A stretch of DNA of 64,000 bases from Candidatus Saccharimonadales bacterium. GTDB taxonomy: Bacteria > Patescibacteriota > Saccharimonadia > Saccharimonadales > UBA4665. The stretch covers positions 8,657 through 72,656 of the forward strand of contig JBBSEN010000004.1 of NCBI GenBank assembly GCA_038239685.1. Reading direction: 5' to 3'. Numbering within the stretch: the stretch's first letter is position 1; each line of letters starts with the position of its first letter. Position numbers and translations under genes: made by a program. Under the pieces are notes generated by a model that was not told the origin of the DNA, searched no databases, and worked only from the letters and a program-made list of their open reading frames with translations. Positions 12,367 through 48,004 of this stretch are shown one piece after another.

Positions 12367-12376
12367 GACTCTAATA

Positions 12377-13543: not shown

Positions 13544-13545
13544 AT

Positions 13546-24371: not shown

Positions 24372-24450
24372 GATGCCGCCATTGTAGCATGTTTAAGGAT
24401 AAGCGTGACCGTCGAGACGGTTTCGCGGCTATGGTAAAATAGGTTGTAGT

Positions 24451-25620
24451 ATGGAGAAACAAGTCCTCGCCAAATTATTATCCCAGATTAAGCACGGCAC
24501 CCTGTCGGTTACTTTTTGGGATGGTGAAACCCAGAACTACGGCCGCGGCCAACCCAAAGCCGGTGTCACTATCAAACGCCCCGGCATCTTAAAGAAAGCC
24601 GTCCGCAACCCCAGCTTGGTCCTGGGCGAGGCCTACATGAACGGCGACATTGACGTCGACGAGCCGCTGGAGAACTTGATCCAACTCGGCCAGGCCAACC
24701 CCTTGCGGCTGGAAGTCGGCAGCACGGTGCGCCGATTAAGCAAACTTCACAAAAACAAAAAGTCCAAGCAAGCCGCTTACATCGCCCACCACTATGATCT
24801 CGGCAATGACTTCTACCAGCTGTGGCTGGACCCGACGATGTCCTACTCCTGCGGCTATTTCACCTCGCCACGCGACAGCCTGGAGGCCGCCCAGCGGCAA
24901 AATACCGAACACCTCCTGCGCAAGTTGCAGCTGAAACCCGGCATGCGCCTGCTGGATATCGGCAGCGGCTGGGGCTTCCTGTTGATCGAGGCCGCTAAGC
25001 GCTACAAGGTCCAAGGCCTGGGCGTTTCCCTGAGCAAGGAGCAAATCAAGTACGCTAAGGCCGCCGCCAAGCGGGCCGGTGTCGACAAGCTGGTCAAGTT
25101 CCGGCTGCAGAACTACCAAGATTTACCCAAGGCCGAGACCTACGACCGGGTAATCAGCGTCGGTTTTTTCGAGCATGTTGGCCGCGGAAACCATGATACT
25201 TACTTTAAGATAGTCGACAATGTCCTCAAACCCGGCGGTATCTCAGTCTTGCACTCCATATCGCACCAGGACGAAGCCCTGATCGACCCGTGGGTCGACA
25301 AGTATATCTTCCCGGGCGGCTACCTGCCTAGCGTCCGCGAGACGACCCGGCTGCTCAGCGAGCATGATTTCTACCTGTTTGATTATGAAAACCTGGGACA
25401 GCATTACGCCATAACCCTAGAGCGCTGGTGGCGGGCCTTCGAGCGTCACAAGCCCCAAGTCATAGCCATGTACGACGAACGCTTCTACCGGATGTGGCGG
25501 CTCTATCTGCTGAGCGCCAGGACGGCATTCACCACTGGCAGCGCCCACCTTTCGCAGTGGACCTTCAAGAAGGGCCGCGACCCGGACTGGCCGCTGACGC
25601 GCGCCTATTTGTACAAGTAG
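24451..25620 (+). CDS. cfa: Cyclopropane-fatty-acyl-phospholipid synthase family SAM methyltransferase
   Basis: HYDLGNDFYQLWLDPTMSYSCGYF, LLDIGSGWG (SAM motif I) and the C-terminal WRLYL pattern are all typical of the CFA synthase/mycolic acid methyltransferase family. Confidence 0.8.
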   Translation: MEKQVLAKLLSQIKHGTLSVTFWDGETQNYGRGQPKAGVTIKRPGILKKAVRNPSLVLGEAYMNGDIDVDEPLENLIQLGQANPLRLEVGSTVRRLSKLHKNKKSKQAAYIAHHYDLGNDFYQLWLDPTMSYSCGYFTSPRDSLEAAQRQNTEHLLRKLQLKPGMRLLDIGSGWGFLLIEAAKRYKVQGLGVSLSKEQIKYAKAAAKRAGVDKLVKFRLQNYQDLPKAETYDRVISVGFFEHVGRGNHDTYFKIVDNVLKPGGISVLHSISHQDEALIDPWVDKYIFPGGYLPSVRETTRLLSEHDFYLFDYENLGQHYAITLERWWRAFERHKPQVIAMYDERFYRMWRLYLLSARTAFTTGSAHLSQWTFKKGRDPDWPLTRAYLYK

Positions 25621-26299: not shown

Positions 26300-27349
26300 A
26301 TGAAGATTTTGGTAACGGGTGGTGCCGGATACATCGGTTCCCACACCGTTGTTGAGCTTCTTAATAGTCGGCACCAGGTCGTTATTGTCGACAACTTTTC
26401 TAACAGCAGCCCGGGTGTCTTGTCGCGACTGCGGCAACTGACCGGCTGGCAGCCAACACTCTACAAGGGCACAGTCCAGGACCGTCGGCTGCTCCATCGG
26501 ATATTCTCCGAGCATCGTATTGACGCCGTCATGCATTTCGCCGGCCTGAAAGCAGTTGGCGCGTCCATGCAGCAGCCGCTGGAATATTACCGTACCAATA
26601 TCGAAAGCTCACTGGCGCTCTGCGAAGTGATGCGGGCTAATAACGTTAAGAAATTGATCTTCAGTTCTTCGGCGACGGTCTATGGCGATCCCCAAGAGTT
26701 ACCGTTGCGGGAGACCAGCACCGCCGGCTACGACTTGGCCAATCCCTATGGGCGCAGCAAGTATATGGTGGAGCAGATATTGCACGACCTGGCGGCGGCC
26801 GAGACGGGCTGGCAGATTACATTGTTGCGCTATTTTAATCCGATTGGCGCCCATGACAGCGGCCTGATCGGCGAAGATCCGCGCGGCATTCCCAACAATC
26901 TACTACCCTACATTAGCCGCGTCGCTGCCGGCGTCCTGGAGAGGCTCCAGGTATTCGGGAAGGACTATGACACCGTTGACGGCACCGGCGTGCGCGATTA
27001 TATACATGTCGTTGACGTAGCCCAGGGTCACGTGGCCGCCCTAGAGCAATTGCGACCGGCTGACCGCCCGGAAGTTTACAATCTCGGCCGCGGCCGCGGC
27101 ACATCAGTCCTGGAGGTAGTGCGAACCTTCGAGGCAGTGTCCGGCAAAACTATTCCGTATCACGTCACTGGCGCGCGAGCGGGCGATGTCGCCAGCCTGT
27201 ATGCCGATGTCTCGAAGGCGAGGGTCAAGCTTGGCTGGCAGGCCAGCAAAAGTCTGGAAGAGGCCTGCGTCGACGCCTGGCGCTGGCAGTCGCAGCATCC
27301 AGATGGTTTCAGCGGCGTGCGTCGGCCACTTGTAGCGGTGGCTGGGTAG
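26300..27349 (+). CDS. galE: UDP-glucose 4-epimerase
   Basis: MKILVTGGAGYIGSH (GxxGxxG), the YGRSK catalytic YxxxK motif, and full-length GalE-like sequence. Confidence 0.9.
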   Translation: MKILVTGGAGYIGSHTVVELLNSRHQVVIVDNFSNSSPGVLSRLRQLTGWQPTLYKGTVQDRRLLHRIFSEHRIDAVMHFAGLKAVGASMQQPLEYYRTNIESSLALCEVMRANNVKKLIFSSSATVYGDPQELPLRETSTAGYDLANPYGRSKYMVEQILHDLAAAETGWQITLLRYFNPIGAHDSGLIGEDPRGIPNNLLPYISRVAAGVLERLQVFGKDYDTVDGTGVRDYIHVVDVAQGHVAALEQLRPADRPEVYNLGRGRGTSVLEVVRTFEAVSGKTIPYHVTGARAGDVASLYADVSKARVKLGWQASKSLEEACVDAWRWQSQHPDGFSGVRRPLVAVAG

Positions 27350-27358
27350 TTGTATAAT
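27330..27358 (+). promoter_or_regulatory. Putative sigma70-type promoter for the PP-loop gene pair
   Basis: TTGTAG (27330-27335), a 17-nt spacer, then TATAAT (27353-27358) preceded by TG. It lies 37 nt upstream of the ATG at 27396. Confidence 0.4.
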
Positions 27359-27395: not shown

Positions 27396-28622
27396 ATGGT
27401 CATTTCAGACGTTGAGCTTACCCGTAATAAGTCCTTTACAACTCTTTCCGCGAAGTGCAAGATCAGAAAAATCGGTTGGGACGAAGTATATTTCAAGGTT
27501 GCTGCCGAACACCAGTCGGATGTCTATGCTGACGCCAGCCCGTTTGCTTCGGCCTTGCTCATCCCCTCCATGCGCCGCGGCGAAGACTTGATTATCAAAG
27601 GCAGCATTTCCCGGCAATTATATGATGGCCTGCAGTCTATCATGGCGGAAGTCCTGGGCTGGGAGATCGGCCTCAAGCCGATTGCTATCAAAGCTGACGC
27701 GCTGGTCAAAGACAGCTACCGGCCGGCCAAGACAGCCACCTTCTTCTCGGGTGGAGTCGATTCCTTCTATACCTACCTCAAGCACACCGCCAAGTCAGCC
27801 ACAGCTGACCGGGTAGACAGCCTGATCTTTGTCAACAACGGCAATGATATTGACCCGCGCAATAAACAGCTGTGGGACAACACCCTTGAGAGCCTGCGCG
27901 AGATTGCCAAGGCCGGCCAGGTTGACCTGGTTGTCGTCGAGAGCAATATCAATTCACTGGAGCTGCTGAACCCTATCGTACCCTGGGATTACATCCACGG
28001 CGGCTGTCTGGCGGCTACCGGCCTGTTCCTACGCGGTGGCTTCCGCCGGATTTATGTGCCTTCTACCCACTCCGTCGCTGAGCAAATTCCTTATGGCTCT
28101 AACCTGGCCTTGGACAATCACTGGAGCACCGAACAGACGGAATTCATACACGATGGCAGCGAGACCACCCGACTGAACAAGGTCGTTAGCCGGATCGCCA
28201 AGTCGCCGATTGCCCTGCGGCATTTGCGAGTCTGCTACATGAACAAAAACGGCGTCTATAACTGCGGCAAATGCGATAAATGCCTGCGCACGATGGTGAA
28301 TCTGTATATTGCTGGCGTGCTCGACAAGTCCCAGACTTTTCCTCACCAGCTGGACCTGCTGCGGATTGCTAGCACACCGACCATCGCCGGCCAGGACCTG
28401 CAGATATTTCACCAGGAAAACCTGGCTGCCCTGCGTGAAACCCATATGGATCCCGGACTGGAAGCGGCCGTGGGCGCCAGCATCGCCTTAACGGTCGGCC
28501 TGAAGCCAGCCACCGTCAGTAAGAAAGTCAGGAATAAAGTCGCCTACCTCGATCACAGCTACTTAAAAGGCTGGCTGTACAGTGGTTATTCGGGCTTATT
28601 CGGCAAGCGGTTCAGCCCATGA
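27396..28622 (+). CDS. Uncharacterised PP-loop (SGGxDS) ATP-pyrophosphatase with a QueC-like Cys cluster, paralogue 1
   Basis: FFSGGVDSFYTYLKH at about residue 107 and LRVCYMNKNGVYNCGKCDKCLRTM. It also has unassigned ~105-aa N-terminal and ~100-aa C-terminal regions. Confidence 0.65.
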   Translation: MVISDVELTRNKSFTTLSAKCKIRKIGWDEVYFKVAAEHQSDVYADASPFASALLIPSMRRGEDLIIKGSISRQLYDGLQSIMAEVLGWEIGLKPIAIKADALVKDSYRPAKTATFFSGGVDSFYTYLKHTAKSATADRVDSLIFVNNGNDIDPRNKQLWDNTLESLREIAKAGQVDLVVVESNINSLELLNPIVPWDYIHGGCLAATGLFLRGGFRRIYVPSTHSVAEQIPYGSNLALDNHWSTEQTEFIHDGSETTRLNKVVSRIAKSPIALRHLRVCYMNKNGVYNCGKCDKCLRTMVNLYIAGVLDKSQTFPHQLDLLRIASTPTIAGQDLQIFHQENLAALRETHMDPGLEAAVGASIALTVGLKPATVSKKVRNKVAYLDHSYLKGWLYSGYSGLFGKRFSP

Positions 28623-29875
28623 TTATTCAGGATGTCCATCTAACGGTGGATCACGAAGCGGCCGTCCTATCCGCCAAGTGCAAGATCAGAAAAATCGGCT
28701 GGGACAGGGTGTATTTGCGGGTCGCTTCCCCAAACAGCGATTATGTCTTTGACGATGCCAGTCCTTTCGCCGCCATGCTGTTGCTGCCGGCCATGAAACA
28801 GGGCGAAGACTTAATTATTAAAGGCAGTATTTCCGAGCAACTGTATAACGGCATGCAGCTCATAATGGATGAAGTTGCCGGCTGGGGCGCCGGCCTGCGG
28901 ACTGTCAGGATTATAGCCGACCAGGTAGTCAAAGACCGGCACCGTCCCAGCCAGACAGCCAGTTTCTTTTCGGGAGGCGTGGATTCTTTCTATACATATT
29001 TAAAGCACAAGCACGACAGCCGTGAAGCCGATCGGGTAGACTGTTTCATCCTGGTGAAGAACTTTGACATTGATATCCAGAACAACGCTCTCTGGGAGAG
29101 CGCTCTCAAGAACGTCCAGGCCGTTGCCGACAAAGAGCATATCGAGCTGGTTGTGGTGGAAACTAATATTCACCAGTTGGTAGAGCCGCTACTGGCTTGG
29201 GATTATGCCCATGGCGGCTGCCTGGCGGCGGTCGGCTTGTTTCTGCGCCGGGCCTTCCGAACGGTTTATATTCCTTCAACGTTTTCCGTCGAAGAACAAA
29301 TCCCCTGGGGCTCGTCGTTAGCGCTAGATAAGCACTGGAGCACCGAATGTACCAGCTTCGTGCATGACGGCAGCGAAGTAACGCGTATCGGTAAGGTCTT
29401 CGCCGAGGTCGCCAAGTCGCCGGTTGCAATGAGCCATCTGCGGGTTTGCTATATGAATAAACGGGGGGCTTACAACTGCGGCAGATGTCCGAAATGCCTG
29501 CGAACCATGATCAGCCTATATGCCGCCGGCGTGTTGGGTAAGGTGGCGACCTTGCCCCACCGGATAGATCCTCAGCACGTGGCTGACATTCCGGCCGCCA
29601 GGAACCAAGGCCGGCAAATACTCGCTGGTGAATACCAGAACCTGGAAGCCTTGCGCCAGCGCCGGCTAAACCCCCGCCTCCAGCAGGCTATTTTGTCGAG
29701 CATCGCCCAGACCAATGCCCGCCAAATCCAACCAGCCTTCAGGCTAAAGTATAAAGTGGCTCGGCTGGCGCAGCGGCTGGTCTATTTCGATCATCTGTAT
29801 TTAAGGGGTTTACTTTACTCGGCGTATAATGGCCTGCTTGGCAAATCGTCCTTCGATTACACTAATTCCCGCTAA
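28619..29875 (+). CDS. Uncharacterised PP-loop (SGGxDS) ATP-pyrophosphatase with a QueC-like Cys cluster, paralogue 2
   Basis: Colinear with paralogue 1 (SAKCKIRKIGWD, GEDLIIKGSIS, FFSGGVDSFYTYLKH, LRVCYMNKRGAYNCGRCPKCLRTM). An ATGA start/stop overlap couples the two genes. Confidence 0.65.
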   Translation: MIIQDVHLTVDHEAAVLSAKCKIRKIGWDRVYLRVASPNSDYVFDDASPFAAMLLLPAMKQGEDLIIKGSISEQLYNGMQLIMDEVAGWGAGLRTVRIIADQVVKDRHRPSQTASFFSGGVDSFYTYLKHKHDSREADRVDCFILVKNFDIDIQNNALWESALKNVQAVADKEHIELVVVETNIHQLVEPLLAWDYAHGGCLAAVGLFLRRAFRTVYIPSTFSVEEQIPWGSSLALDKHWSTECTSFVHDGSEVTRIGKVFAEVAKSPVAMSHLRVCYMNKRGAYNCGRCPKCLRTMISLYAAGVLGKVATLPHRIDPQHVADIPAARNQGRQILAGEYQNLEALRQRRLNPRLQQAILSSIAQTNARQIQPAFRLKYKVARLAQRLVYFDHLYLRGLLYSAYNGLLGKSSFDYTNSR

Positions 29876-31121
29876 TGGCGGTGCGGTAGGCGGCGTAAGC
29901 GGGCTTCGAGCTGCCGTCGTAACGCAGCAAGCCGAAAAAGTTATTAGTATCGCCGGCTGAGGCACCGAGGTCCTGGTAGTTGTACCAAAAGAAACCGCCC
30001 AGCCACGGATCGGTTTTGTACTGTGTAACAGCATCGGTCAGCATGGCGGCCTGCAAGGCTTCGTCGACGTGATCCGGATGAGCGTCATAGTTAAAGTTCG
30101 CGCTGGTCGCCAGCGCGCCTGGCCCGTTCGTCGGCGCGCCGAATTCAGTCGCCCAAACCGGCTTGGCGGCGTCGCCGTAAGCCGTCATGATGGCGCGGAT
30201 ACTGTCGGACACGTCAGCCATGGTTGACCAGCCGCTCCAGCTGGCGACATGCGACGGCGTGGCCGGATAGGCGTAAGGGTGGTAGCCGACGGCGTCAAAG
30301 TAAGCTTTGGCGCCGCTGAGGTACATCGTTCGCAAGAAAGTTTGTTGCGGGAGGCTGAGCGAACTGCCATCCAGCGGGCCCAGTCCGCCGGTTAGTACCA
30401 GGGCGTTCGGATCAACCCGTTTAATAGCCGGATAGCTGGCTTGCAACAGCTGCGTGTAGTCTGACGGGCTTGGGGCTGGCTGCCAGAAGCCTTCTAGGTT
30501 TGGTTCGTTCCATATTTCCCAACTATGGACGCCCAGGGAAGCGTAGCGGCTAGCGGCGGCGGCGGCGAAGGTCGCGAACTGGCCGGGCGAGGCTGGCGCG
30601 CAGCGCTGGCTGGGCGTGCAGGCCGGCAGGCCGGCCCACGCCGGGGTGTAGCCCAAAGTACCTAGTATTTTTAGGCCATGGCTGTTGGCGGCGGCGACAA
30701 TATGGTCCAGCGGACTCCAATCGTACTGCGACGGATTGTCCGGCTGGATACTTGCCCAGGACACATCCACCCGAATCCAGCTGACGCCTAAGCTGGTCAT
30801 GTCGCTCAGTTCGGCATTCAGGCGGGCCGGATTATTCCAGGGTAAGGTCTCGCCCGTGGCCAGCCCGAACGGCTTGGTCAGCTTGACCGGTGCGGGCGGT
30901 GGCGCGGCCGACTTAAAGATGACGGCCGGTTGCTTGGCCTGGGTTCGGACTACCGATATAGGCTTTTTTGGCGCCAGCGCGGCTTTCGGCTCGTGGTGGA
31001 AGACTACTACGAGCGCGATGGCTAGCCCGATAAGGCTTACCAATAAGGCCGGCTGCCACCAGGCTTTCCGGGGTATTCTGCCTTGAATATAATACTTTCT
31101 AACCCTGATATCATCCCTCAA
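29862..31121 (-). CDS. Membrane-anchored clan GH-A glycoside hydrolase (GH5/GH39-like)
   Basis: N-terminal TM, SWEIWNEPN (acid/base Glu in NEP) and VWATEFG (nucleophile Glu). Confidence 0.7.
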   Translation of the reverse strand: MRDDIRVRKYYIQGRIPRKAWWQPALLVSLIGLAIALVVVFHHEPKAALAPKKPISVVRTQAKQPAVIFKSAAPPPAPVKLTKPFGLATGETLPWNNPARLNAELSDMTSLGVSWIRVDVSWASIQPDNPSQYDWSPLDHIVAAANSHGLKILGTLGYTPAWAGLPACTPSQRCAPASPGQFATFAAAAASRYASLGVHSWEIWNEPNLEGFWQPAPSPSDYTQLLQASYPAIKRVDPNALVLTGGLGPLDGSSLSLPQQTFLRTMYLSGAKAYFDAVGYHPYAYPATPSHVASWSGWSTMADVSDSIRAIMTAYGDAAKPVWATEFGAPTNGPGALATSANFNYDAHPDHVDEALQAAMLTDAVTQYKTDPWLGGFFWYNYQDLGASAGDTNNFFGLLRYDGSSKPAYAAYRTAISGN

Positions 31122-31229: not shown

Positions 31230-32498
31230 TTGAAAGCCACCGCCAGAGCGCTTGCCAGTGAAACCCTGTTTCGCAACTCTTTTTATCTGATATTCACCAC
31301 CGGGACGATGGCTGCCTTTGGTTTTGTATTCTGGGTGATAGTGGCCCGCCTCTACCAGCCGGCCCAACTCGGGGTAGCCTCCACTCTGATATCGTCCATG
31401 AATTTTATCGCTTACTTGAGCCTGCTGGGTTTTAACAGCACTTTCGTGCGTTTCCTGCCCCAGTCACGCAACCGCGACGAGCATATCAATACCGGACTGA
31501 TCCTGGTAACCGGCGCCGCCCTGTTGAGCGGTGGCTTGTTCGCGGTCCTGGCCCCACTCTTTGCGCCCAAGCTCGGCATCTTGCACCAGAGTATCTGGTT
31601 TGAACTAGGTTTCGTAGCGCTGTGCGTCGGCGCGGCGGTCAATCTAGTGACCGACAGCATTTTCGTGGCTTACCGTGCAGCTGGCTACAATCTCCTGGTT
31701 GACGGCTTGCTAGCCAGTAGCATCCAGTTGCTCCTGCCGGCCGTTTTAATCGGCTTGGGCGCCTATGGTATATACGCGGCGCAAGGTTCGGCGGTCTTTG
31801 TCGCCATGCTGGTCAGCCTGCTCTTTTTGATTAAAAAATTCCAGTACCGACCGGCTCTTAAGCTGAACCATCAGGTTTGGCAGGAAGTGAAACAGTATTC
31901 ATTTGGAAATTACGCTGGTAATTTGTTTAATACTCTGCCGAGCATCCTAGTGCCGATTATCGTTCTCAACAAGCTCGGGGCGGCCCCGGCCGGTTACTAT
32001 TACCTGGCCTTTATGATGGCCAATTTGCTGTTCGCGATCGCCTACGGCGTTACCCAGTCGCTCTTCGCCGAAGGCTCGTACGAGGAGCGACAGCTTTGGC
32101 TGTTAGTCAAGCGGGCCGCCGCCCTACTGGCCGTGCTGGTAATTCCGGCCAGCCTGATCCTGGTCGTTGTCGGACCGTTTATCTTAGATGTTTTCGGCCG
32201 AAATTACGGCCTGCACGCCAGACAGGTGTTGTTGGTCCTAGCCGCCGCCGCGCCTTTTACGGCGGCGTGCGCGCTCGGCACCGTCACGCTGCGTATTACC
32301 AAGCACGTCGGCTCCATCCTGCTCATTAACGTGTTCTACGCGTTGATCATTTGCGGCCTGGCCTTCGCCTGGGCGCCAAGGGGATTGGCCTGGGTAGGCG
32401 GCGCCTGGCTGAGCGGCCAGGTTTTGACGGCGGTTATTATTTTTGCGGTCTTGGGCTTTCAGCATCGTCGGCACTGGAACGCTCGTAGGCTTGCTTAA
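31230..32498 (+). CDS. Wzx-like polysaccharide flippase (MOP superfamily)
   Basis: 422 aa with about 12 to 14 TM helices. TTG start. It lies within the glycan cassette. Confidence 0.65.
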   Translation: MKATARALASETLFRNSFYLIFTTGTMAAFGFVFWVIVARLYQPAQLGVASTLISSMNFIAYLSLLGFNSTFVRFLPQSRNRDEHINTGLILVTGAALLSGGLFAVLAPLFAPKLGILHQSIWFELGFVALCVGAAVNLVTDSIFVAYRAAGYNLLVDGLLASSIQLLLPAVLIGLGAYGIYAAQGSAVFVAMLVSLLFLIKKFQYRPALKLNHQVWQEVKQYSFGNYAGNLFNTLPSILVPIIVLNKLGAAPAGYYYLAFMMANLLFAIAYGVTQSLFAEGSYEERQLWLLVKRAAALLAVLVIPASLILVVVGPFILDVFGRNYGLHARQVLLVLAAAAPFTAACALGTVTLRITKHVGSILLINVFYALIICGLAFAWAPRGLAWVGGAWLSGQVLTAVIIFAVLGFQHRRHWNARRLA

Positions 32499-33726
32499 TA
32501 ATCTCGGCCGCTCGGTGCGCCTTGTCAACATAAGCCGGTATAACCGTTTGCAGCTGACGGACGTAAGCCTGACGTTGCTCAACTAGGTGTGCGAACAACC
32601 GGGCCAGCCCATCCGTCGTGACATCTTCCATGTCGATAACCCATTTTTCCAGGCCGAGGTCCTGCATAATGCCGCTGGTTTTATGTTCGTACTCGATAGC
32701 AATTACCGGCACGCCGGCCGACAGGGCAAATATAACCGAATGAAAGCGGGTACCGACCAGATAATCCAAGTCTGTTATGACCAATTTTATGGCGCGATAA
32801 TCTAAGCGTTCCAAGAAGGTTACCTGCTCGTTACCTTTTAACAGCCGGGCCAACCGTTGGCCGACCAGTCGGTCGTCATCATCGTGGTGCTCGGAAGTTA
32901 CCTGGGCGATAACTACGACATTTAAATCGCCGCTACGCGTGATCCGGCTAATGAAGCCGGCCATGGCCTGTTCGTATTCGGCCTGGGCCGCCGGCGGCAG
33001 CCAGGCGCGGACGGTTAGGCCAACAACTTGACTGCCTGTGGTCGGGCCCACCAGCTGGCTGGGCCGGGGCTGACGTGGTGGTTTAAATAGGAACGCACTG
33101 TCCGGGACCTGGGTAATAAGTGGTGCCGTCAAACCTAAGCCGGCTAGCAGCTGGGCGGATCGGGCCTCCCGGACTAGGATTAAATCGACGCGGCGAAGAC
33201 CGGCCACGGCAATGCGTCTTTGGATTTTTTTGGGATACGGGCCGAACGACTGGGCATATAAGTAGACCGGTTTTTTCAGCAGTTTAGCCAGCCATATTTG
33301 ATGGAAGAGTAACAGTAAGATGACGGTACTGCTATGGTCGTCTTTGGCCCGCAGGTAGCCGCCGCCGACACAGACTTGCAGGTCGGCCGCCGCCAGCAGC
33401 CGCAGCGGCTGGCGCCAGGCACGGGGCAACGGCAAAGCCAGCCTGGTCAGGCGCAACGTGATTACCCAGAGCACGGTATAAGCCATCATGCTCCAAGCTA
33501 GCAGCAGTTTGGTCAGCTTATGATTCGATGGCGAAACGGCGCCATACATCAGGGCTTTAACAACCGGTACGCCGTCAAATTTGTAATCAGCCCTGATATT
33601 GTCAACCGACAGTACACTGAGCTCCGGGTGGTGAAATACCCGTTTTAGTTCGCTGATTTGGGCCGATAGTATGGCGGCGTCACCGGCGTTATGGCTGGAA
33701 TAAACGTGCGAGATTAAGATTTTCAC
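32437..33726 (-). CDS. Polysaccharide pyruvyl transferase family protein (CsaB/WcaK-like)
   Basis: MKILISHVYSSHNAGDAAILSAQISEL N-terminus and a C-terminal TRFHSVIFALSAGVP motif, both typical of PS_pyruv_trans. Its 3' end overlaps the convergent flippase by 62 nt. Confidence 0.7.
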   Translation of the reverse strand: MKILISHVYSSHNAGDAAILSAQISELKRVFHHPELSVLSVDNIRADYKFDGVPVVKALMYGAVSPSNHKLTKLLLAWSMMAYTVLWVITLRLTRLALPLPRAWRQPLRLLAAADLQVCVGGGYLRAKDDHSSTVILLLLFHQIWLAKLLKKPVYLYAQSFGPYPKKIQRRIAVAGLRRVDLILVREARSAQLLAGLGLTAPLITQVPDSAFLFKPPRQPRPSQLVGPTTGSQVVGLTVRAWLPPAAQAEYEQAMAGFISRITRSGDLNVVVIAQVTSEHHDDDDRLVGQRLARLLKGNEQVTFLERLDYRAIKLVITDLDYLVGTRFHSVIFALSAGVPVIAIEYEHKTSGIMQDLGLEKWVIDMEDVTTDGLARLFAHLVEQRQAYVRQLQTVIPAYVDKAHRAAEIIKQAYERSSADDAESPRPQK

Positions 33727-36700
33727 CGGTAGATCTCCGTTGCGCCATTGCTATAGAGCAGGTTTTTTTGCTGGTCGAGTAGGGCCGTCGGGTAACTGTA
33801 GGTTATTAGGTCCCCATTGTAGGCGACCGTGGATTGGCGTTTGGTAACATTGGAATAACCCAGGATGACATAGGTGCCCTGCCTGATAAGGCTTGGGAAA
33901 ATATTGTTAGTGGCATCTATATCCGAATAGTTCATCAGTTTATTAAACATATACTGGTCGGCTTGGACCTCCGGGGCCGGCTTGGTATGGCTAGCATGGG
34001 CGGTGCGGTCGAGCCAATCAACACCAGCTATTTCTTGGGCATGGGTATAGTAGATATCATAATAGGTGCCGGAGTTATTTAAATTAAGCTGGGCGGAATA
34101 GCCCCCCAGGGCTTGTGTAATCACACCTGTCGAAGACAGGAAGAACAGTATTGCTAGCAGCACCGGTAGGCCGAGTTTGAGTAGTCGGGTCGGCAGCCAG
34201 GCGAACAGGGCCAGGCTGCCCAGCACGGTAAATACCCCGAGTAGCATCAGCGATTGCTGGAAAGCCCGTAGTAAACCATATTGGACCGACAGTACCGGCA
34301 AGACGACTTGCAGGGCCACGAACACCATGCTGCCAATCGACAAGCTGATAAAGTCATTGTCGAGCAGGCGGCCGTAGCTTGGCCGCGCCAGTACGTAGAT
34401 AAAGCCTGATATGACTAGAATTTGTAATAGTTTGGCAGAACCCTGCCGCATGGCCTGGTTAAAGGCGGCGACGTCCAGTCCCCTGCTTTCCAGGCTCCGG
34501 CCCAGCCGGGTCAAAGGTTGGGTTTTTACCGGGACGAGCTTGACTGGATAATGTTTATAGTCGGCCGCCGGGTAGTAGGCGCCCGGATCCTTGGCCCGGG
34601 TAATGTCGGCGACGCTTTTGACATAGCTATTCAGTTCCTCGGCCGGTGATGCTGATTTCGAAGAAAACAGGTTGTAGCTGGTGTCGTTTGATTTCGGCTC
34701 TTCTTGGCGGAAACTACTGCCGATGGCACTAAAGGTCTGTTTGATGACCAGGCTGGTGTTACTGCCGGTGTGGGTCAGCACTGTCGTCCACCAAAAGCTG
34801 GCAAAAGCCAGGCTGACGACCATCAGCAGGCTGATTCGTTTCAGGTGGGAGGCCCGGACGCGGAGGGTCGCCAGCGGCCGGTTGGCTAGCAGCCGCCGTC
34901 GGCCCAGCCAATCACTGGTTTTCAGCAGGACCGGCCAAGCGACGGCCGCCATAAACAGGATGGCTATGATCGAGTAGGTTGTGGAGTAGTGGGATAGGAC
35001 TAAGCCCAGCCCGAACGCCATGAAGAGGCCTCGGCGCAGTTTAAGGACTAGCTGGTCCTGGAATAGTACATAAAACATCAGCGCCGCGAAGATGAAGGCG
35101 ATCTCCTGGCGGTTCAGAAACGGCAGGTCGGTAAAAAAGGTCGGGAAAGCCATAAAGTAGAGCGTTGCCAAAAAGGCTATTGCGACCGACAGCCATTTGC
35201 GCACTAGTAGGTAAATAATGGCCGGGCAAAACGCGAAGATTACTTGGAAGAGCACCTTATAAACGTAGGGGTCCAAGACTTTCAAAAGGTTGGCGAACAT
35301 CGTCGGCAAAATGGTCAGGCTCAAGCAGGCGTTGTAGGGGTCGCGGAAATCCTGGATTCGCCAAACGCCACTCGTCTTGGCCAGTTGGAAGACATGGTAT
35401 TCCAACTGGATGTCACTACCTGAGGTATACCAGCTGCGCAAGGAGGTCATCAGCAGCAAGGCCAGCGACATCAGGGTAATGGCAGCGGCGACGCTGGTAT
35501 CGCCGAGCCGGCGGCTTTTGGCCAGCAGCAGCCAGCTAAAGCCGGCCATACCGATCAGCATAACCATCGTCCAGGCGTTGGCTCCACCGTTGTTGAGACT
35601 GGTTGCCCCGAGGATACTCAGTACGACAAGGCCGAGTGGCGCGACCGCAACCTGGCGCTCCAGCCGTGTCGGCAGTAATTCTCGGAGCTTGGCGCGCGGG
35701 TTGAGCCGCCAGCCTTTGGCGCGCCACCAAGCTACGATTAGCAATACTGCCAATGAGGCGCTGATTTCCCAAACTAGATAGCTGGCGTCAAGCGGACGGC
35801 TGGTGCCGGCCAATTGCAACAGCGTGTTACCGAGCAAGCCAATTAGCAGCAATTCCAGCAAGCTGAAGCCGATGGCCAGGACCAACTTGCCCCAGGCCGC
35901 CAGCTGGTTAAGGCGCAGGCTGATAACCGTCAGCATGCCAGGTACCAGTGTCAAAAAACTAAAACCGACAGTGTCGGTGAGCACGGCCGGCAAGCCATGC
36001 GCGGCCCGTAAGCCGAGGAATAGTAACCACCAGCCGATCACACCGGTCGCCAAACCGAACCTGGTAATAGCGCGAGCCGGTTTTTGCAGGACCGGGCTCT
36101 CGTAGAGTGCCGTTAGTTGTTCGGCCAGCTGCCGCCAGGAATGTCCGGCCGCCATGTCGCGTCCGGCTTGCGATAACAAGGGGAGCTGCGTTTTCCGCTG
36201 CTCATAAAAGTCATCAATAGCCGTGGCGAAGGAGCTGGGCGATGGTTTTTTGACGAGTATGCCGTTGCCGCCAGCCAGATGTTCGCGGATACCCTGGACG
36301 TCCGAGCCGATAACCGGCAAACCGGCCGCCATGGCCTCCAGTAGGACCAGCGGCATGCCCTCTTTGTCGGACGGCAGGACGAAGACGTCGGCTTGTTCAT
36401 AAGCTCGTAATAACTCATCGCCGGCCAGCGTGCCGTGGAAGGTGATATTTTGCAAGCCGTGTTCCTCGGCGAGGGCCTGTAATTTGGCGCGGTCTTCACC
36501 GTCGCCGATAATAGCCAGCTGCACGTCGGCCGCCGTTTTAGTAAGTGCCTCAATCAGCCGGTCAACCCGTTTTTGGATGCTCAGCCGGCCGACATATAGC
36601 AGCCGCAGCGGCGTGTGCGCTTCCCTGTCTTTGGCGCCGATGTCCAGGAATTTTTGGGCGACGCCGTTGGGCAAGAAACTAACTTTGGCGGCGCTGATGT

Positions 36701-37232
36701 GGTAGCGGTGCTGGATCATGGCGGCCTGTTCCGGTGACAACGCGATAACCTGGTCCGCGCCGCGCATAATGACAGGTTGGACGAAGCGTTTGTAGAGCAC
36801 GAATAAGAAGCCTAAACGCCCGGACGGTTCGGCGTCTAGATGAAAATGAACGACGTAGGGAATGCGCCGCAGCTTGGCTGACAGCCAGACCATTTCCGGC
36901 AGGTAGGCCTGCGATAAGTGGAGATGAAATATAGCCGGCTTTTTGACGCGCAGCAAGCACCACAAGAGAGCTGGCATGAAGGGCGTATGGGCGAATTCAA
37001 AAGTTCGCAAGCGGCTAAGTTTATAGGGAATTTTGTGATCTTCAGCGAACGGGTTGGCGGCGTCAATACTGGATGTGATGACCTCGACCGGCCAGCCGGC
37101 CTCGGCCAGCGCCGAACTTATTTCTTGAGCAACCACTTCCATGCCGCCCAAATGCGGCGGGTAGTAGCCAACGATTTGGATGATAGTCGGTTTAGGTGCG
37201 GCCGTTTCGTCTGGCGGCGCGGGTTTACTCAT
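33723..37232 (-). CDS. Fusion protein (1169 aa): N-terminal GT4 glycosyltransferase plus a large polytopic membrane domain (polymerase/GT-C-like)
   Basis: Residues ~15-385 are GT4 (DKEGMPLVLLEAMAAGLPVIGSDV). Residues ~390-1169 hold many TM helices and a C-terminal soluble part. Confidence 0.75.
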   Translation of the reverse strand: MSKPAPPDETAAPKPTIIQIVGYYPPHLGGMEVVAQEISSALAEAGWPVEVITSSIDAANPFAEDHKIPYKLSRLRTFEFAHTPFMPALLWCLLRVKKPAIFHLHLSQAYLPEMVWLSAKLRRIPYVVHFHLDAEPSGRLGFLFVLYKRFVQPVIMRGADQVIALSPEQAAMIQHRYHISAAKVSFLPNGVAQKFLDIGAKDREAHTPLRLLYVGRLSIQKRVDRLIEALTKTAADVQLAIIGDGEDRAKLQALAEEHGLQNITFHGTLAGDELLRAYEQADVFVLPSDKEGMPLVLLEAMAAGLPVIGSDVQGIREHLAGGNGILVKKPSPSSFATAIDDFYEQRKTQLPLLSQAGRDMAAGHSWRQLAEQLTALYESPVLQKPARAITRFGLATGVIGWWLLFLGLRAAHGLPAVLTDTVGFSFLTLVPGMLTVISLRLNQLAAWGKLVLAIGFSLLELLLIGLLGNTLLQLAGTSRPLDASYLVWEISASLAVLLIVAWWRAKGWRLNPRAKLRELLPTRLERQVAVAPLGLVVLSILGATSLNNGGANAWTMVMLIGMAGFSWLLLAKSRRLGDTSVAAAITLMSLALLLMTSLRSWYTSGSDIQLEYHVFQLAKTSGVWRIQDFRDPYNACLSLTILPTMFANLLKVLDPYVYKVLFQVIFAFCPAIIYLLVRKWLSVAIAFLATLYFMAFPTFFTDLPFLNRQEIAFIFAALMFYVLFQDQLVLKLRRGLFMAFGLGLVLSHYSTTYSIIAILFMAAVAWPVLLKTSDWLGRRRLLANRPLATLRVRASHLKRISLLMVVSLAFASFWWTTVLTHTGSNTSLVIKQTFSAIGSSFRQEEPKSNDTSYNLFSSKSASPAEELNSYVKSVADITRAKDPGAYYPAADYKHYPVKLVPVKTQPLTRLGRSLESRGLDVAAFNQAMRQGSAKLLQILVISGFIYVLARPSYGRLLDNDFISLSIGSMVFVALQVVLPVLSVQYGLLRAFQQSLMLLGVFTVLGSLALFAWLPTRLLKLGLPVLLAILFFLSSTGVITQALGGYSAQLNLNNSGTYYDIYYTHAQEIAGVDWLDRTAHASHTKPAPEVQADQYMFNKLMNYSDIDATNNIFPSLIRQGTYVILGYSNVTKRQSTVAYNGDLITYSYPTALLDQQKNLLYSNGATEIYR

Positions 37233-37245
37233 AGGAAGTCCCTAG

Positions 37246-39078
37246 TTAAAGTTTCCCCGTCCGCAGCAGGGCGTCCGTTTTTTGTGCCTGGCTGTGCCAG
37301 CTGAAAGCTTGGGTGGCTTTGTGCCGGCCTTGGGCCCCCAGCCTTTCAGCGATCGCCGGGTGAGCCAGCAGGTAGGACAGCTTATCGGCTAAAGCGCGGC
37401 TATCGGCCGGAGGCACCAGGTAGCCGGTGCTGCCTTCGTCCACTAGCTGCGGCAGGCTGCCGACCGTCGTCGCGATAACAGGCAGGCCAGCCGCCATGGC
37501 TTCCAGGGTAACCATCGAAAAACTGTCGTTTAACGACGGCAGCACGAATATGGCCGCCTCCTGGAAGCTGTGCTGCAGCCTGGCACCGGTCTGGCCGCCC
37601 CTGAAAGTGATCTGCTTGCCGAGGCCCAGCTGTTGCACCAAGGTCTCGAAGCCGGGGCGCCCGGATCCCGAACCGACGATGGTAAGCCGGGCATCGGGGT
37701 GGCCCTGACTGACATGGCGAAAGGCCTCAAGCAAGTAGCGCAGACCTTTGTGCGTATCTGACTTATTAAGACTGCCGACGAACAGAATGGATTGCGGCGT
37801 TCGCCTTGCGGCCGGCTTGAAGAAGTCGCTATCAACGCCGGGCGTAATCGTCCGTGATTTGCCGAGATATGACTTGAGGAAATCATCGCGTACGCTGTCT
37901 GAAGCGCATATGATGCTTTCGGCTTTCTCTAGTGTCCTGGGGAGAACATAGCGTTCATAGGGTCGGATCAGCCAGTCGGCCGGTACTTGGCCTTTCTTCA
38001 TGCTTAACATGTGATAGGTGACCACCACAGGCAGCCGGCCGGCGACCCACGCCGCGATGTCGGCGAACAAAGGCACCGGCGCGTGGGCGTTGACGGTGTA
38101 GATGTCTTCACGCTTGATGATGCGGCGCAACCACCAGCCGGTCAGCGGATGCAGCGGCGTATTGGATAATTTGAGAAGATACGGCAGGCGGTAGACGACT
38201 AATCCCTTATAGCTGGTCTGAGCCAACTTCCAGCCCCGCTCTCCAGAGGTGGCGACGCGGACTTCCCAGCCATCATCGCGCTGCAGCCCTTGGGCAATGT
38301 GGAAGGCATAGTTTTCCTGTCCGCCCAAGTGCGGCGGGAAGTACGGCGCCGCCAGTAGTAGCCGTTTAGGACGGAACTCAACTAGCCCGCCATTACTGAC
38401 GTACTGGACATGTGGCCGACGAGCGATATATTGGAAGACGTCTTGCAGTTTTTGCCAATCGTTATGGGCGTCTATTTCCCAGGAATGTCCCCATAGGTGA
38501 TAGACGCCACCCTCGGCCAGTACGCGGTCAAACATGGCCTTGGCCAAGTTGTCCCACTGCCGGTAACGCCAGGCCCGCCGGGGGTTGAATTGAGCGAAGC
38601 GGAGTATCCGCCAGGCGTCTTGGTAATGATTATAGGCGTGGATGGTGGTCGCCGCTTCGAATAGAGAGGCCTTGAGGTCAAATGAATGTCGCCGAACAGT
38701 ACGGGCGTAGCGCAGGCCGGCCCGACGGACCATGGCCACGTGCTTTGGTTGATAATTCCCGCCCGGATAGCAAAAGCTGGTTACCTGCTTGCCGGTCATT
38801 GCTTCCAAGCGCAATTTGGAATCTAGAACTTCCCGGTAAGCGCTATCGTCGGGAATTTTCGGCAGGCGGGGATGGGTCATGGTATGGGCACCGATCTCAA
38901 ACGAACGGCTCAAAGTCTTGACTTGCTGAGCCGTTAAGCGGTCGGACGGCGCTAATTCCTGGTTCTGTGGCGCGATATAGAAGGTTCCAGCCAGGCCGTA
39001 TTGCTGTAGCAGCTGGGCCAGCCGCACGTCCAGCTTGTGGCCGTCATCCCAACTGGTAGTCACGATGACCAGTTTCAT
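37246..39078 (-). CDS. Fusion protein (610 aa): N-terminal NodB-type polysaccharide deacetylase (CE4) plus a C-terminal GT4 glycosyltransferase
   Basis: VIVTTSWDDGHKLDVRLAQLLQQYGLAGTFYI and IGAHTMTHP (NodB motifs). The C-terminal part carries LNDSFSMVTLEAMAAGLPVIATTVGS (GT4). Confidence 0.75.
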   Translation of the reverse strand: MKLVIVTTSWDDGHKLDVRLAQLLQQYGLAGTFYIAPQNQELAPSDRLTAQQVKTLSRSFEIGAHTMTHPRLPKIPDDSAYREVLDSKLRLEAMTGKQVTSFCYPGGNYQPKHVAMVRRAGLRYARTVRRHSFDLKASLFEAATTIHAYNHYQDAWRILRFAQFNPRRAWRYRQWDNLAKAMFDRVLAEGGVYHLWGHSWEIDAHNDWQKLQDVFQYIARRPHVQYVSNGGLVEFRPKRLLLAAPYFPPHLGGQENYAFHIAQGLQRDDGWEVRVATSGERGWKLAQTSYKGLVVYRLPYLLKLSNTPLHPLTGWWLRRIIKREDIYTVNAHAPVPLFADIAAWVAGRLPVVVTYHMLSMKKGQVPADWLIRPYERYVLPRTLEKAESIICASDSVRDDFLKSYLGKSRTITPGVDSDFFKPAARRTPQSILFVGSLNKSDTHKGLRYLLEAFRHVSQGHPDARLTIVGSGSGRPGFETLVQQLGLGKQITFRGGQTGARLQHSFQEAAIFVLPSLNDSFSMVTLEAMAAGLPVIATTVGSLPQLVDEGSTGYLVPPADSRALADKLSYLLAHPAIAERLGAQGRHKATQAFSWHSQAQKTDALLRTGKL

Positions 39079-40217
39079 GAGCTAACCTCCGGCAATAAAC
39101 CGGCGTAAATTTGATCGAGCTCACGGGCGACCTGCGGCCAGCTAAAGTGGCGCCGAACATAGTCCCGCGAATGGTTAGCCATGCGCCGGCGACGCGCCCC
39201 GTCATCGACTAGCTCTAGAATGGCCTGCCGGATAGCATCCGAAGACGGACGGTTGGCGAGCAGGTAGACAAATTCCTGGTCCAGCTTATAGGCGTCGTAG
39301 CCGTCATCATAAGACATGATGACTGGCAGGCCACTGGCCATGGCCTCTTGAATGACGAGCGGAAAGCCTTCGCCATAGGCCGGCAGTACAAAAATATCCG
39401 CCGCCCGGTAGATTTCCGCCAATTGCGGCTGAGACAGCTGACCCAGAAAGCGTACCTGTGACGATTCGGCCTGACTCGCCTGACCGCCCACGAATACCAG
39501 CTGGTAACGTTTATTCTTAGCGGCCAGTACCTTGTCAAAACCCTTCTTGATCGCGGCCCGGCCGACGAAAAGGATTATTTTCCGGTTTTCAACTAAGTCA
39601 TATTTTTGGCGGATTAATTGTTTTTCTAACGGCTTGGCTGGCCGGAATAGCTTGTCGTCAACGCCGTTGAAGATGAGCCGGATTTTGCGGCCACTAATGC
39701 CTCGGGCCAGCAAGAATGAACCAATGCGCTCGTTGAGAATGATAATGGTCGCGCTACAGCGGAAGACCATGGCGCCGGCCGTAGCGTATACCAGCCGCTG
39801 CAGCCAGCGGACCAGCCGGCTAGGGTGCGGCACCAGGTCCACGTGTTGGGTTAGGACGACCGGCCGTCCGTAGAGGCGGGCCAGGATGGCGGCGCACCAC
39901 GACGATATATAGAAGGCGTCATGAATATGTACTACCTCGGCCCGCCGGATTTCCCGACGCAGGCTAATCAGCAAACTTGGTGAAAAAATCGGAAACGGCA
40001 CGCCCCACCGCTCAAAGCCGTTAAAGGCGGGGACGCGGACAATGGTCGCCGATTTGTCCTGGCTGCAAGGCTTGTCGGCCAAAATCCGGCTGGTGAGGAC
40101 TGTTACGCTGTCGCCAAGCGCGGCCAGCGCTTTGGCTTGATTCTGGGCGACATATTCTATGCCGCCCGCATGCGGCGGATAGTAATGGGTTACGATCAGG
40201 ATTTTTTTAGCTTTCAC
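39075..40217 (-). CDS. Family 4 (GT-B) glycosyltransferase
   Basis: ILIVTHYYPPHAGGIEYV N-terminus and YGEGFPLVIQEAMASGLPVI. Confidence 0.8.
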   Translation of the reverse strand: MKAKKILIVTHYYPPHAGGIEYVAQNQAKALAALGDSVTVLTSRILADKPCSQDKSATIVRVPAFNGFERWGVPFPIFSPSLLISLRREIRRAEVVHIHDAFYISSWCAAILARLYGRPVVLTQHVDLVPHPSRLVRWLQRLVYATAGAMVFRCSATIIILNERIGSFLLARGISGRKIRLIFNGVDDKLFRPAKPLEKQLIRQKYDLVENRKIILFVGRAAIKKGFDKVLAAKNKRYQLVFVGGQASQAESSQVRFLGQLSQPQLAEIYRAADIFVLPAYGEGFPLVIQEAMASGLPVIMSYDDGYDAYKLDQEFVYLLANRPSSDAIRQAILELVDDGARRRRMANHSRDYVRRHFSWPQVARELDQIYAGLLPEVSS

Positions 40218-40253
40218 CGCGATAATAATTTAAAGTTCTACCGTTCCTGCCGT

Positions 40254-41006
40254 TTATTCCGAATCTTTCGGCACGGGCCGCCAGGTCATCGGCGTCGTGG
40301 TGGAAGCGTTAGTTCGGATCCTATGGCGCAGGGCGAAGCGCTTCTTAAAAAGTTCGGAAAAGGTCCGCCAAGCGTCAAAAACGGATAGCTTTTCATGGCC
40401 GACACGTTTGCTGTAGGTGATTGGTACTTCGGCGCAGCGAAAGCCGCCGACGTAGGCGTCTATTTTTATTTCCTGCGAGAACGGCATGCCAGGGTGTTTG
40501 CTATCCAGTCTCTGCCAAATGGACCGGCGAAAAATCCACATGCCCGATTGCGAATCCTTAAATGGCGCCCGGAACAAAAGATGCATGATGAAACTCAGGA
40601 TATAGTTGCCAATAATATGCGACCGGGACATAGCGGCCCGATTTAGCCTAGTGAGGCGGTCGGTCGTGACAAAGTCGAGGTCAGCCTGGTTGAAAGCGGC
40701 CAGAATGGCGGGCACCGCCGCGAAAGGATATGTCATATCGGCGTCGCCGGAAATAATAATATCGCCGGTGGCCGCGGCAAAGCCGGCTTGGTAGGCGTTG
40801 CCGTAGCCGCGGCGCGGCTGACTGATAACCCGGGCGCCGCGTTGACGGGCGATCTCGGCCGTGCGGTCAGTCGAATTATTGTCCACGACTAGCTTTTCAA
40901 TCGTGTAGCCGGCCGCCATCAGTTCAGTCACCGGAATGCTATCAAGCGTTGGGCCAATGCCGGTTTCTTCATCATAGGCCGGGATAACGAAGCTTAGCGA
41001 GGTCAT
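40254..41006 (-). CDS. Family 2 glycosyltransferase (DPM1/polyprenyl-phosphate sugar synthase-like, soluble form)
   Basis: LSFVIPAYDEETGIGPTLDSI...VVDNNSTDRTAEIA...SGDADMTYP. Confidence 0.75.
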   Translation of the reverse strand: MTSLSFVIPAYDEETGIGPTLDSIPVTELMAAGYTIEKLVVDNNSTDRTAEIARQRGARVISQPRRGYGNAYQAGFAAATGDIIISGDADMTYPFAAVPAILAAFNQADLDFVTTDRLTRLNRAAMSRSHIIGNYILSFIMHLLFRAPFKDSQSGMWIFRRSIWQRLDSKHPGMPFSQEIKIDAYVGGFRCAEVPITYSKRVGHEKLSVFDAWRTFSELFKKRFALRHRIRTNASTTTPMTWRPVPKDSE

Positions 41007-47929: not shown

Positions 47930-48004
47930 TGGCTCCGGGGACTGGATTCGAACCAGCGACCTAGGCGTTAACAGCGCCCCGCTCTACCGCTGAGCTACCC
48001 CGGA
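47930..48004 (-). tRNA. tRNA-Asn (anticodon GTT), CCA encoded
   Basis: Hand-folded cloverleaf: acceptor UCCGGGG/CCCCGGA, D arm GCUC-AGCGGUA-GAGC, anticodon arm GGGCG-CUGUUAA-CGCCU, variable loop AGGUC, T arm GCUGG-UUCGAAU-CCAGU, discriminator G, CCA. Confidence 0.9.

Follow-up and report, generated by a model that had tools for sequence, protein, structure and literature searches.

Two adjacent genes in the genome of a Candidatus Saccharimonadales bacterium, which we call A and B, encode paralogous PP-loop proteins of a separate QueC-superfamily branch that has no name yet and that by test is not QueC, QatC or WbpG. They lie at positions 27,396 to 29,875 of a 64,000-nucleotide stretch of contig JBBSEN010000004.1 (hereafter the window), in a glycan locus, and members of their family recur beside, and are sometimes fused to, polysaccharide pyruvyl transferases (PyrT, PF04230). 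The superfamily is already known; the coupling to the PyrT family is newly documented and specific. It is very likely that the pair tailors a glycan, and the chances that it acts on a pyruvyl group or together with PyrT are evenly balanced. Our main proposal, which may equally well prove right or wrong, is that A and B are cytoplasmic adenylating enzymes that modify, and probably amidate, the carboxylate of a pyruvate ketal, a chemistry argued by analogy with other members of the superfamily.

The initial annotation of this DNA had described two open reading frames (ORFs) of 408 and 418 aa joined by an ATGA overlap, and both ORFs and the overlap lie exactly where it had placed them (Table 1). 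The proteins are 56% identical over their full length (pairwise protein comparison, E=2e-170), and the PP-loop, Cys-cluster and N-terminal motifs quoted for them are all present in both: FFSGGVDSFYTYLKH at residues 116-130 in A and in B, the stretches SAKCKIRKIGWD and GEDLIIKGSIS.QLY, and the common pattern LRVCYMNK.G.YNCG.C.KCLRTM, in which the Cys cluster of A is LRVCYMNKNGVYNCGKCDKCLRTM and that of B LRVCYMNKRGAYNCGRCPKCLRTM. B retains all family-invariant residues. The case for stretches of near-identical nucleotide sequence in the two genes proves weaker than was stated, with one long identical stretch, the 23-mer AAGTGCAAGATCAGAAAAATCGG, which occurs exactly twice, at 27453 and 28676, with 0 occurrences expected by chance; it is the sole identical run of at least 20 nt, and overall nucleotide identity between the genes is 61%. 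We considered gene conversion as the source of the 23-mer and rejected it on these figures and because the same codon is used at 51% of the residues identical between A and B, which argues for ordinary paralogy. Transmembrane segments are absent from both proteins (in A, the highest Kyte-Doolittle average over 19 residues is 1.28) and, since both lack a hydrophobic segment, they are predicted to be cytoplasmic.

The pair had been presented as belonging to no recognisable family, and searches with curated models agree. The Pfam QueC model (PF06508) scores 13.4 and 10.8 bits, below its gathering threshold of 22, in a match confined to the Cys-cluster stretch. No NCBIfam model matches significantly, TIGR03573 and the other NCBIfam amidotransferase models give no match even at E<=10, the QatC model NF041925 reaches 10.5 bits against a cut-off of 280, and the PADLOC models, QatC included, return nothing. 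Protein A and the profiles A1 and A2 likewise found nothing meaningful among PDB sequences, and the Pfam and NCBIfam searches produced no full-length match to a characterised family. When the A2 profile was aligned with hhalign to a lone E. coli QueC sequence, the probability was 3% and the match covered the P-loop only, a result that carries no information since the template had no alignment behind it. Among 98 diverse family members with a mean column identity of ~27%, which served as our conservation set, sub-threshold matches to Pfam QueC appear in 23 and to Pfam DUF6395 (PF19932) in 22, the latter over the Cys-cluster region and none reaching the gathering score; DUF6395 is itself uncharacterised, and we found no literature on it. 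RefSeq relatives on plasmids of cultured organisms are all annotated as "hypothetical protein", and the names that the JGI pipeline gives automatically to some relatives ("QueC", "diphthamide synthase") are generic PP-loop assignments. Literature searches on the family, on pyruvyl transferase with PP-loop and on pyruvyltransferase with QueC found no publication, and those on Saccharibacteria with pyruvyl nothing relevant.

The predicted fold points to the QueC superfamily. An AlphaFold2 model of A built on 30 homologues (pLDDT 87.8, pTM 0.87) comprises an N-terminal alpha/beta domain (residues ~1-105), a five-stranded PP-loop Rossmann core (~106-260), a predicted zinc knuckle (280-296) and, at the C-terminus, a helical extension (~306-408); SGGVDS, at residue 118 in both A and B, directly follows the strand at 112-116 in the model. 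Foldseek against the PDB returned a sole match at E<=0.001, QatC chain 9y02_B from a QatB-QatC complex (E=1e-5, probability 1.0, full length, 11% identity, TM 0.42), with weak, core-only matches to NcsA, TilS, GMP synthetase (GMPS), LarE, Cap9 and MnmA. Against BFVD, the top matches were phage QueC proteins (E=3.6e-5). All Foldseek matches in the two databases are PP-loop enzymes, and QatC and phage QueC are the only significant structural neighbours. Motifs and fold together bear out the earlier identification of a PP-loop enzyme with a QueC-style four-Cys site. The regions at either end, which the initial annotation could not place, have the layout of the extensions that QatC carries at its N- and C-termini; as modelled, the fold is that of the QueC superfamily with QatC-like extensions at both ends. 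From their place in this superfamily, we are highly confident that A and B are adenylating PP-loop enzymes.

The family is large and widely distributed. A word-indexed search for relatives gave >2,000 hits, and an exhaustive HMMER scan found 6,626 representatives (50% identity clustering) at E<=1e-3 and 1,100 at E<=1e-30. They occur in Patescibacteria (Saccharimonadia, Paceibacterota, Levybacteria, Shapirobacteria, Woesebacteria), Actinomycetota (Streptosporangiaceae, Nocardiopsis), Alpha-, Beta- and Gammaproteobacteria, Cyanobacteriota (Gloeothece, Nostoc), Bacillota (Priestia), Planctomycetota, Chloroflexota and haloarchaea; the nearest relatives, and L002 as the locus with the best synteny (68% identity), come from metagenome-assembled genomes (MAGs) of Saccharimonadales and Saccharimonadia. 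Within the 98-member set, C280, N289, C290 and C293 (numbering of A) are invariant, F116, F117, G120, V121, D122, S123, K295 and C296 are at least 90% conserved, as is a group of polar residues (D151, T183, N184, W197, D240, R259, K262, R278). A relaxed form of the PP-loop is present in 88 of the 98, and neither the SGGxDS nor the Cys motif has been lost in most homologues. In a neighbour-joining tree, single-copy genes from Streptosporangiaceae and Nocardiopsis MAGs (L004, L005, L006, L014 and L046; 56-60% identity) nest within the Saccharimonadia A-type clade. Actinomycetes are known hosts of Saccharibacteria, and this placement may reflect gene transfer between host and epibiont or mis-binning.

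The evidence that ties the family to pyruvylation comes from its genomic neighbourhoods. We collected ~120 loci from genomes, metagenomes and plasmids, identified neighbours by iterative HMM searches validated with Pfam, and counted them in the 46 non-redundant loci whose flanks reached 3 kb or more in each direction, a neighbour being called adjacent when it lay on the same strand within 250 nt. No neighbour was as specific as PyrT, which lay within 5 kb in 31 of the 46 loci (67%) and was adjacent in 17 (37%), and 10 of 10 PyrT genes that we spot-checked were true PF04230 members. The other components of glycan loci were less often near and seldom adjacent: GT4 in 21 loci within 5 kb and 3 adjacent, Wzx in 17 and 1, GT2 in 16 and 2, GH5 in 8 and 3, and epimerases in 7 and 4. 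Adjacency of PyrT and a family gene is seen in Gloeothece PCC 7822, Priestia megaterium, Thiobacillus and several classes of Patescibacteria, and in Azospirillum brasilense p4 the two genes form an isolated module amid unrelated genes. The two are also fused, with the family domain N-terminal to PyrT (P0340), as two family domains followed by PyrT (P0188) and with PyrT between two family domains (P0141); other fusions join two family domains to GT2 (P0156) or one to a methyltransferase (P0226). Because adjacency recurs in unrelated phyla and is accompanied by fusions, the link to PyrT is specific and goes beyond a shared setting in glycan loci. Two of the loci surveyed illustrate the range of arrangements. 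At 49.4-53.3 kb of the Priestia megaterium plasmid NZ_CP109861 (5375-9263 in locus L130), PyrT and two family genes stand between a galactosyltransferase-related gene and GT-D/GalU genes. In L128 (5788-11652), a tandem pair of family genes (390 and 421 aa) is followed by genes for an unknown 404-aa protein, a GT2, a sulfotransferase and an ABC-2 exporter, which places the family in ABC-transporter-dependent glycan pathways too.

Double copies are a recurrent feature of the family and bear on how A and B might work together. Tandem pairs occur in the window, in L002, L003, L111/L112/L121, L123 and L128, and in Priestia (copies 71% identical, motifs intact), and single-chain proteins with two family domains are found as well (P0128, P0140, P0215); both copies of such pairs and fusions nearly always retain the PP-loop and the four Cys. 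Most double-copy cases point to independent duplications, each copy being most closely related to its partner. The window lineage duplicated earlier: A clusters with gene 1 of the L002 pair (68% identity) and B with gene 2 (62%), against 56-59% between A and B, and since B and the second L002 gene form a clade apart from A, the duplication predates the split between the window and L002. The L002 pair (9995-11221, 11218-12444) has the same 4-nt ATGA overlap as the window pair. That two copies have repeatedly been retained, translationally coupled and fused is consistent with a dimeric enzyme, a homomer in most organisms and a heteromer in the window lineage. The heteromer suggested by the initial annotation thus gains indirect backing from tandem pairs and fusions, while the single copy found in most genomes speaks against it, and we consider an A-B heteromer possible, a little short of an even chance. 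The contrary view, that A and B are independent enzymes with different substrates or that one is a redundant copy on its way to being lost, is a serious contender though we would not bet on it; it concerns quaternary state only and is compatible with the proposed chemistry. The lineage-specific and recurrent nature of the duplications, and the fact that both copies keep all catalytic residues so that each could act alone, are in its favour. Against it, the A and B lineages have been kept apart since before the window/L002 split with their 4-nt overlap conserved, and several lineages have fused two copies in one polypeptide, the fusion of two copies being a classic signature of interacting partners.

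At the cytoplasmic face of the membrane, pyruvyl transferases of the WcaK/CsaB type equip a lipid-linked sugar with a new carboxylate. An enzyme predicted to be soluble and ATP-dependent, encoded with PyrT in the same orientation and sometimes fused to it, would most plausibly act on this carboxylate. In the mechanism that we propose, the SGGVDS loop of A and B would hold ATP, with which they would adenylate the carboxylate of a substrate, as QueC, Cap9 and QatC do, after which a nitrogen nucleophile would displace AMP to give an amide; the four-Cys zinc knuckle would shape the substrate site. The substrate would be a glycan intermediate of the locus and not a deazaguanine, most likely the carboxylate of a pyruvate ketal set on the lipid-linked repeat unit by the neighbouring WcaK/CsaB-like PyrT before Wzx flips the unit, and the product a pyruvyl group whose charge is neutralised, as an amide or in an amine conjugate. 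GalE, encoded just upstream of A, supplies UDP-galactose, and galactose is the usual acceptor sugar of WcaK-type pyruvyl transferases; the upstream gene could thus provide the sugar to be pyruvylated. Most organisms would use one copy, presumably as a homodimer, and in the window lineage the old tandem duplication would have left two coupled, motif-intact paralogues that probably form a heterodimer or carry out two specialised steps. That the product is a simple amide seems to us rather unlikely when taken as a claim by itself. By analogy with QueC, it could even be a nitrile, with the tandem paralogues splitting the acid-to-amide and amide-to-nitrile steps. Extending the proposal to the whole family, as the enzyme for an undescribed ATP-dependent conversion of the pyruvate-ketal carboxylate of surface polysaccharides to an amide or amine conjugate in bacteria and archaea, is a tentative step that we judge to be somewhat against the odds.

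Several observations weigh against the proposed modification of pyruvate ketals. We found no report of amidated pyruvate ketals in the literature and, to our knowledge, no such ketal is known; we infer the chemistry of every family member. About a third of the well-flanked loci have no PyrT within 5 kb, and those loci are still glycan loci, as in Nostoc and Haloterrigena. In one subclade (L018-L024 and L035), the family gene adjoins a gene for an ICMT/LmtA-like membrane O-methyltransferase and one for a FAD monooxygenase, with no PyrT nearby, which suggests a different anionic envelope target. No gene for a glutaminase or other nitrogen donor is consistently linked, and amidation could be the work of another enzyme, since an AsnB-like amidotransferase is encoded beside one FAM-PyrT fusion (FAM, family member). 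As for a heteromer, the prevalence of single copies means that it is not intrinsic to the family, and the model of the natural double-domain fusion P0128 (pLDDT 87, pTM 0.65) is weak evidence for a fixed domain pair, its first half being modelled on a shallow alignment with all single-domain homologues aligned to the second half. Two of these settings merit description. In the subclade without PyrT (~35% identity, Levybacteria-type and similar MAGs), the family gene at ~10001-11240 is preceded by a gene for an unknown 183-aa protein and followed by those for the ICMT/PEMT/LmtA-like methyltransferase, the FAD monooxygenase (opposite strand) and a riboflavin kinase. The AsnB-like gene, of the asparagine synthase family (596 aa), lies directly upstream of the P0340 fusion (906 aa) in L126 (1312-5847) and L127 (782-5317), which makes neighbours of two distinct amidotransferase-type chemistries.

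Some of these observations would also suit a pair that tailors another glycan group, by amidation or amino-acid conjugation of a uronic-acid carboxylate or by conversion of an N-acetyl to an acetamidino group as in WbpG, PseA and LfnA. We regard this as an unlikely but real alternative. Such enzymes use the same general PP-loop chemistry, and the SGGxDSxY variant of the P-loop is common to the family and the WbpG cluster (PMC13329287); the glycan loci without PyrT, and the AsnB-like gene and sulfotransferase of some neighbourhoods, agree with it. We examined uronic-acid amidation through linkage to UDP-glucose dehydrogenase (Ugd), which proved nearly absent (within 5 kb in 1 of the 46 loci and adjacent in 0), so that uronic acids are unlikely as the general substrate. 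The initial annotation had already set the pair apart from the WbpG/PseA type, and the lack of any TIGR03573 match together with the absence of the WbpG Cys motif CxxC(x)6CxC from all 98 members upholds that distinction. The Azospirillum module and the FAM-PyrT fusions, finally, are hard to explain without a direct link to pyruvylation.

Table 1. Coordinates of genes A and B, their motifs and the neighbouring genes of the glycan locus (positions within the window)
Feature	Position	Strand	Size	Basis or remark
Gene A	27396..28622	+	408 aa	ORF and translation
Gene B	28619..29875	+	418 aa	ORF and translation; paralogue of A
PP-loop FFSGGVDS of A (residues 116-123)	27741..27764	+		ATP alpha-phosphate/pyrophosphate binding loop
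PP-loop FFSGGVDS of B (residues 116-123)	28964..28987	+		Read from sequence, motif search
Four-Cys cluster of A, C280-x9-C290-G-x-C293-x2-C296	28233..28283	+		Predicted QueC-type Zn site
Four-Cys cluster of B, C277-x9-CGRCPKC	29447..29497	+		Translation, motif search
ATGA, A stop codon overlapping B start codon	28619..28622	+		Translational coupling
Candidate extended -10, TGTATAAT	27351..27358	+		By eye; weak candidate
UDP-glucose 4-epimerase GalE	26300..27349	+		NCBIfam TIGR01179 galE 435.9 bits (cut-off 262.3); Pfam Epimerase E=1.2e-60
GH5-family glycoside hydrolase, convergent with B	29862..31121	-		Pfam Cellulase E=7e-13; recurs in conserved cassette
Wzx-like oligosaccharide flippase (Polysacc_synt)	31230..32498	+		Pfam; conserved-cassette member
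Polysaccharide pyruvyl transferase PF04230, WcaK/CsaB-like	32437..33726	-		Pfam E=1.7e-35
GT4 fused to DUF2206 (GT-C/PMT-like) membrane domain	33723..37232	-	1,169 aa	Pfam; conserved-cassette member
Polysaccharide deacetylase-GT4 fusion, GT4 and GT2	37246..41006	-		Rest of glycan assembly cluster

In the window itself, the genes around the pair form, by their sequence assignments, a Wzx-type glycan assembly cluster, in agreement with the glycan locus first described there: a GalE equivalog, a GH5 hydrolase, a Wzx-like flippase, a pyruvyl transferase and several GT4 and GT2 genes (Table 1). The pyruvyl transferase matches the NCBIfam CsaB and WcaK models below their equivalog cut-offs and would be the functional partner of the A/B pair. 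The GT4-DUF2206 fusion is kept beside the cassette of PyrT and family gene in many Patescibacteria loci; the membrane domain of its L002 orthologue is PMT_2/GT-C-like, and the protein may be a combined transferase and polymerase. The deacetylase fusion (37246-39078, minus strand) joins a PF01522 polysaccharide deacetylase and a GT4 in one 610-aa protein. At the edge of the locus, an ApbE flavin transferase gene lies beside one for a 501-aa protein with an NAD_binding_1 oxidoreductase domain (41943-44329, minus strand).

Upstream of A, the initial annotation had assigned the pair its own putative promoter. There is an extended -10 candidate, TGTATAAT; the accompanying -35 is poor (TTGTAG at 27330-27335, 3 of 6 matches) and a two-hexamer promoter scan reported nothing between 27350 and 27395, leaving a promoter of canonical form unsupported. 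On the same strand, galE ends 46 nt upstream of A, and the pair could just as well be transcribed together with it.

Other genes of the window lie farther from the pair. Directly upstream of the glycan locus (23085-25620), a secretory lipase gene of the LIP family (minus strand) is divergent from one for a CMAS-type cyclopropane-fatty-acyl-phospholipid synthase (plus strand), lipid-remodelling genes that would be notable if the genome belongs to a Saccharimonadia epibiont. The 818-aa protein encoded at 20529-22985 (minus strand) has as its only Pfam signal a RelA_SpoT region at 24.8 bits against a threshold of 27, and may carry a divergent small-alarmone-synthetase-like domain within a large protein. 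A second glycan cluster (12377-19806, minus strand) has its own Wzx-like flippase (18532-19806) and several GT2 genes, and is adjoined by a gene for a 1,244-aa protein with a weak CBM_4_9 carbohydrate-binding signal (8632-12366). A tRNA-Asn(GTT) at 47930-48004 (minus strand) is the only Rfam or ARAGORN RNA match in the window.

Pyruvate ketals rank among the principal sources of negative charge on capsules, exopolysaccharides and secondary cell-wall polymers, and they serve as anchors for SLH-domain S-layer proteins. If the proposal is correct, the family would give thousands of lineages, the ultra-small Saccharimonadia among them, a charge switch for their pyruvylated glycans, with altered charge, ion binding, recognition by phages and antibodies, and S-layer anchoring as consequences. 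Defining the family would in any case annotate thousands of "hypothetical" genes for which we found no Pfam or NCBIfam model, solved structure or literature. Cultured and tractable carriers with compact modules are at hand in Priestia megaterium plasmids (PyrT and two family genes) and in Azospirillum brasilense p4 (PyrT and one family gene), whose module encodes WP_137142849 and WP_247896056.

Comparison with the characterised members of the superfamily sets the limits of the analogy. QueC-family chemistry consists of carboxylate adenylation followed by amide formation: QueC turns 7-carboxy-7-deazaguanine (CDG) into an amide and then a nitrile, and Cap9 and QatC join CDG to a protein N-terminus (PMC13329287, PMC13279940). 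Like QueC, the family has an SGGxDS loop and, after the Rossmann core, a C-terminal C-x(8-9)-C-x2-C-x2-C motif, in the near-invariant variant C(x)9CGxCxxC of the QueC pattern C(x)8CxxCxxC, from which zinc binding is predicted. Unlike QueC, it has an additional N-terminal domain of ~105 aa and a C-terminal domain of ~100 aa, and we saw no queD, queE or folE context around its genes. The deazaguanine-binding and catalytic motifs of canonical QueC and Cap9, YxQxHxxE, VPxRN and YPDC (PMC13329287), are each absent from all 98 members and from A and B.

QatC, the QueC-family protein of the QatABCD anti-phage system (PDB 9y02; PMC13279940, PMC13376578), is the closest in architecture. As published, it begins with a beta/alpha extension, continues with a QueC core that has four Zn-binding Cys, and ends in three helices (PMC13279940). 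QatC and the family are both ~400 aa long and share the order of their parts: an alpha/beta extension at the N-terminus, a five-stranded QueC-type core with the PP-loop, a four-Cys site with CGxCxxC, predicted to bind zinc in the family, and helices at the C-terminus. This shared layout and the best structural match are what recommend the idea that A and B, like QatC and Cap9, join CDG or another small carboxylate to the N-terminus of a protein, perhaps in defence or in the modification of envelope proteins. We nevertheless hold it to be very improbable: in addition to the NF041925 score and the silence of PADLOC, the QatC motifs are found in 0 of the 98 members, the Cys spacing is x9 in the family and x19 in QatC, and none of the ~120 loci has qatA, qatB, qatD, a CD-NTase gene or a conserved small partner, the setting being one of glycan biosynthesis. 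Least credible of all is a sulfur transferase of the LarE/TtuA/NcsA type that converts a carboxylate or carbonyl to a thio-derivative with an Fe-S cluster on its Cys, since to the four conserved Cys and the weak Foldseek similarity of the Rossmann core to NcsA, LarE and MnmA (E 0.05-0.3, family matches at 0.05 or worse) it opposes a C-x9-CGxCxxC pattern that follows the core in QueC zinc fashion and not in the three-Cys Fe-S pattern of LarE and TtuA, and no linked sulfur-carrier or cysteine desulfurase genes.

WbpG, PseA and LfnA differ from the family in domain architecture and resemble it in setting, as PP-loop enzymes of polysaccharide loci with a shared SGGxDSxY loop. If our proposal for the pyruvyl group is right, the recently recognised repurposing of the QueC scaffold represented by Cap9 and QatC would extend from nucleobase and protein chemistry to glycans.

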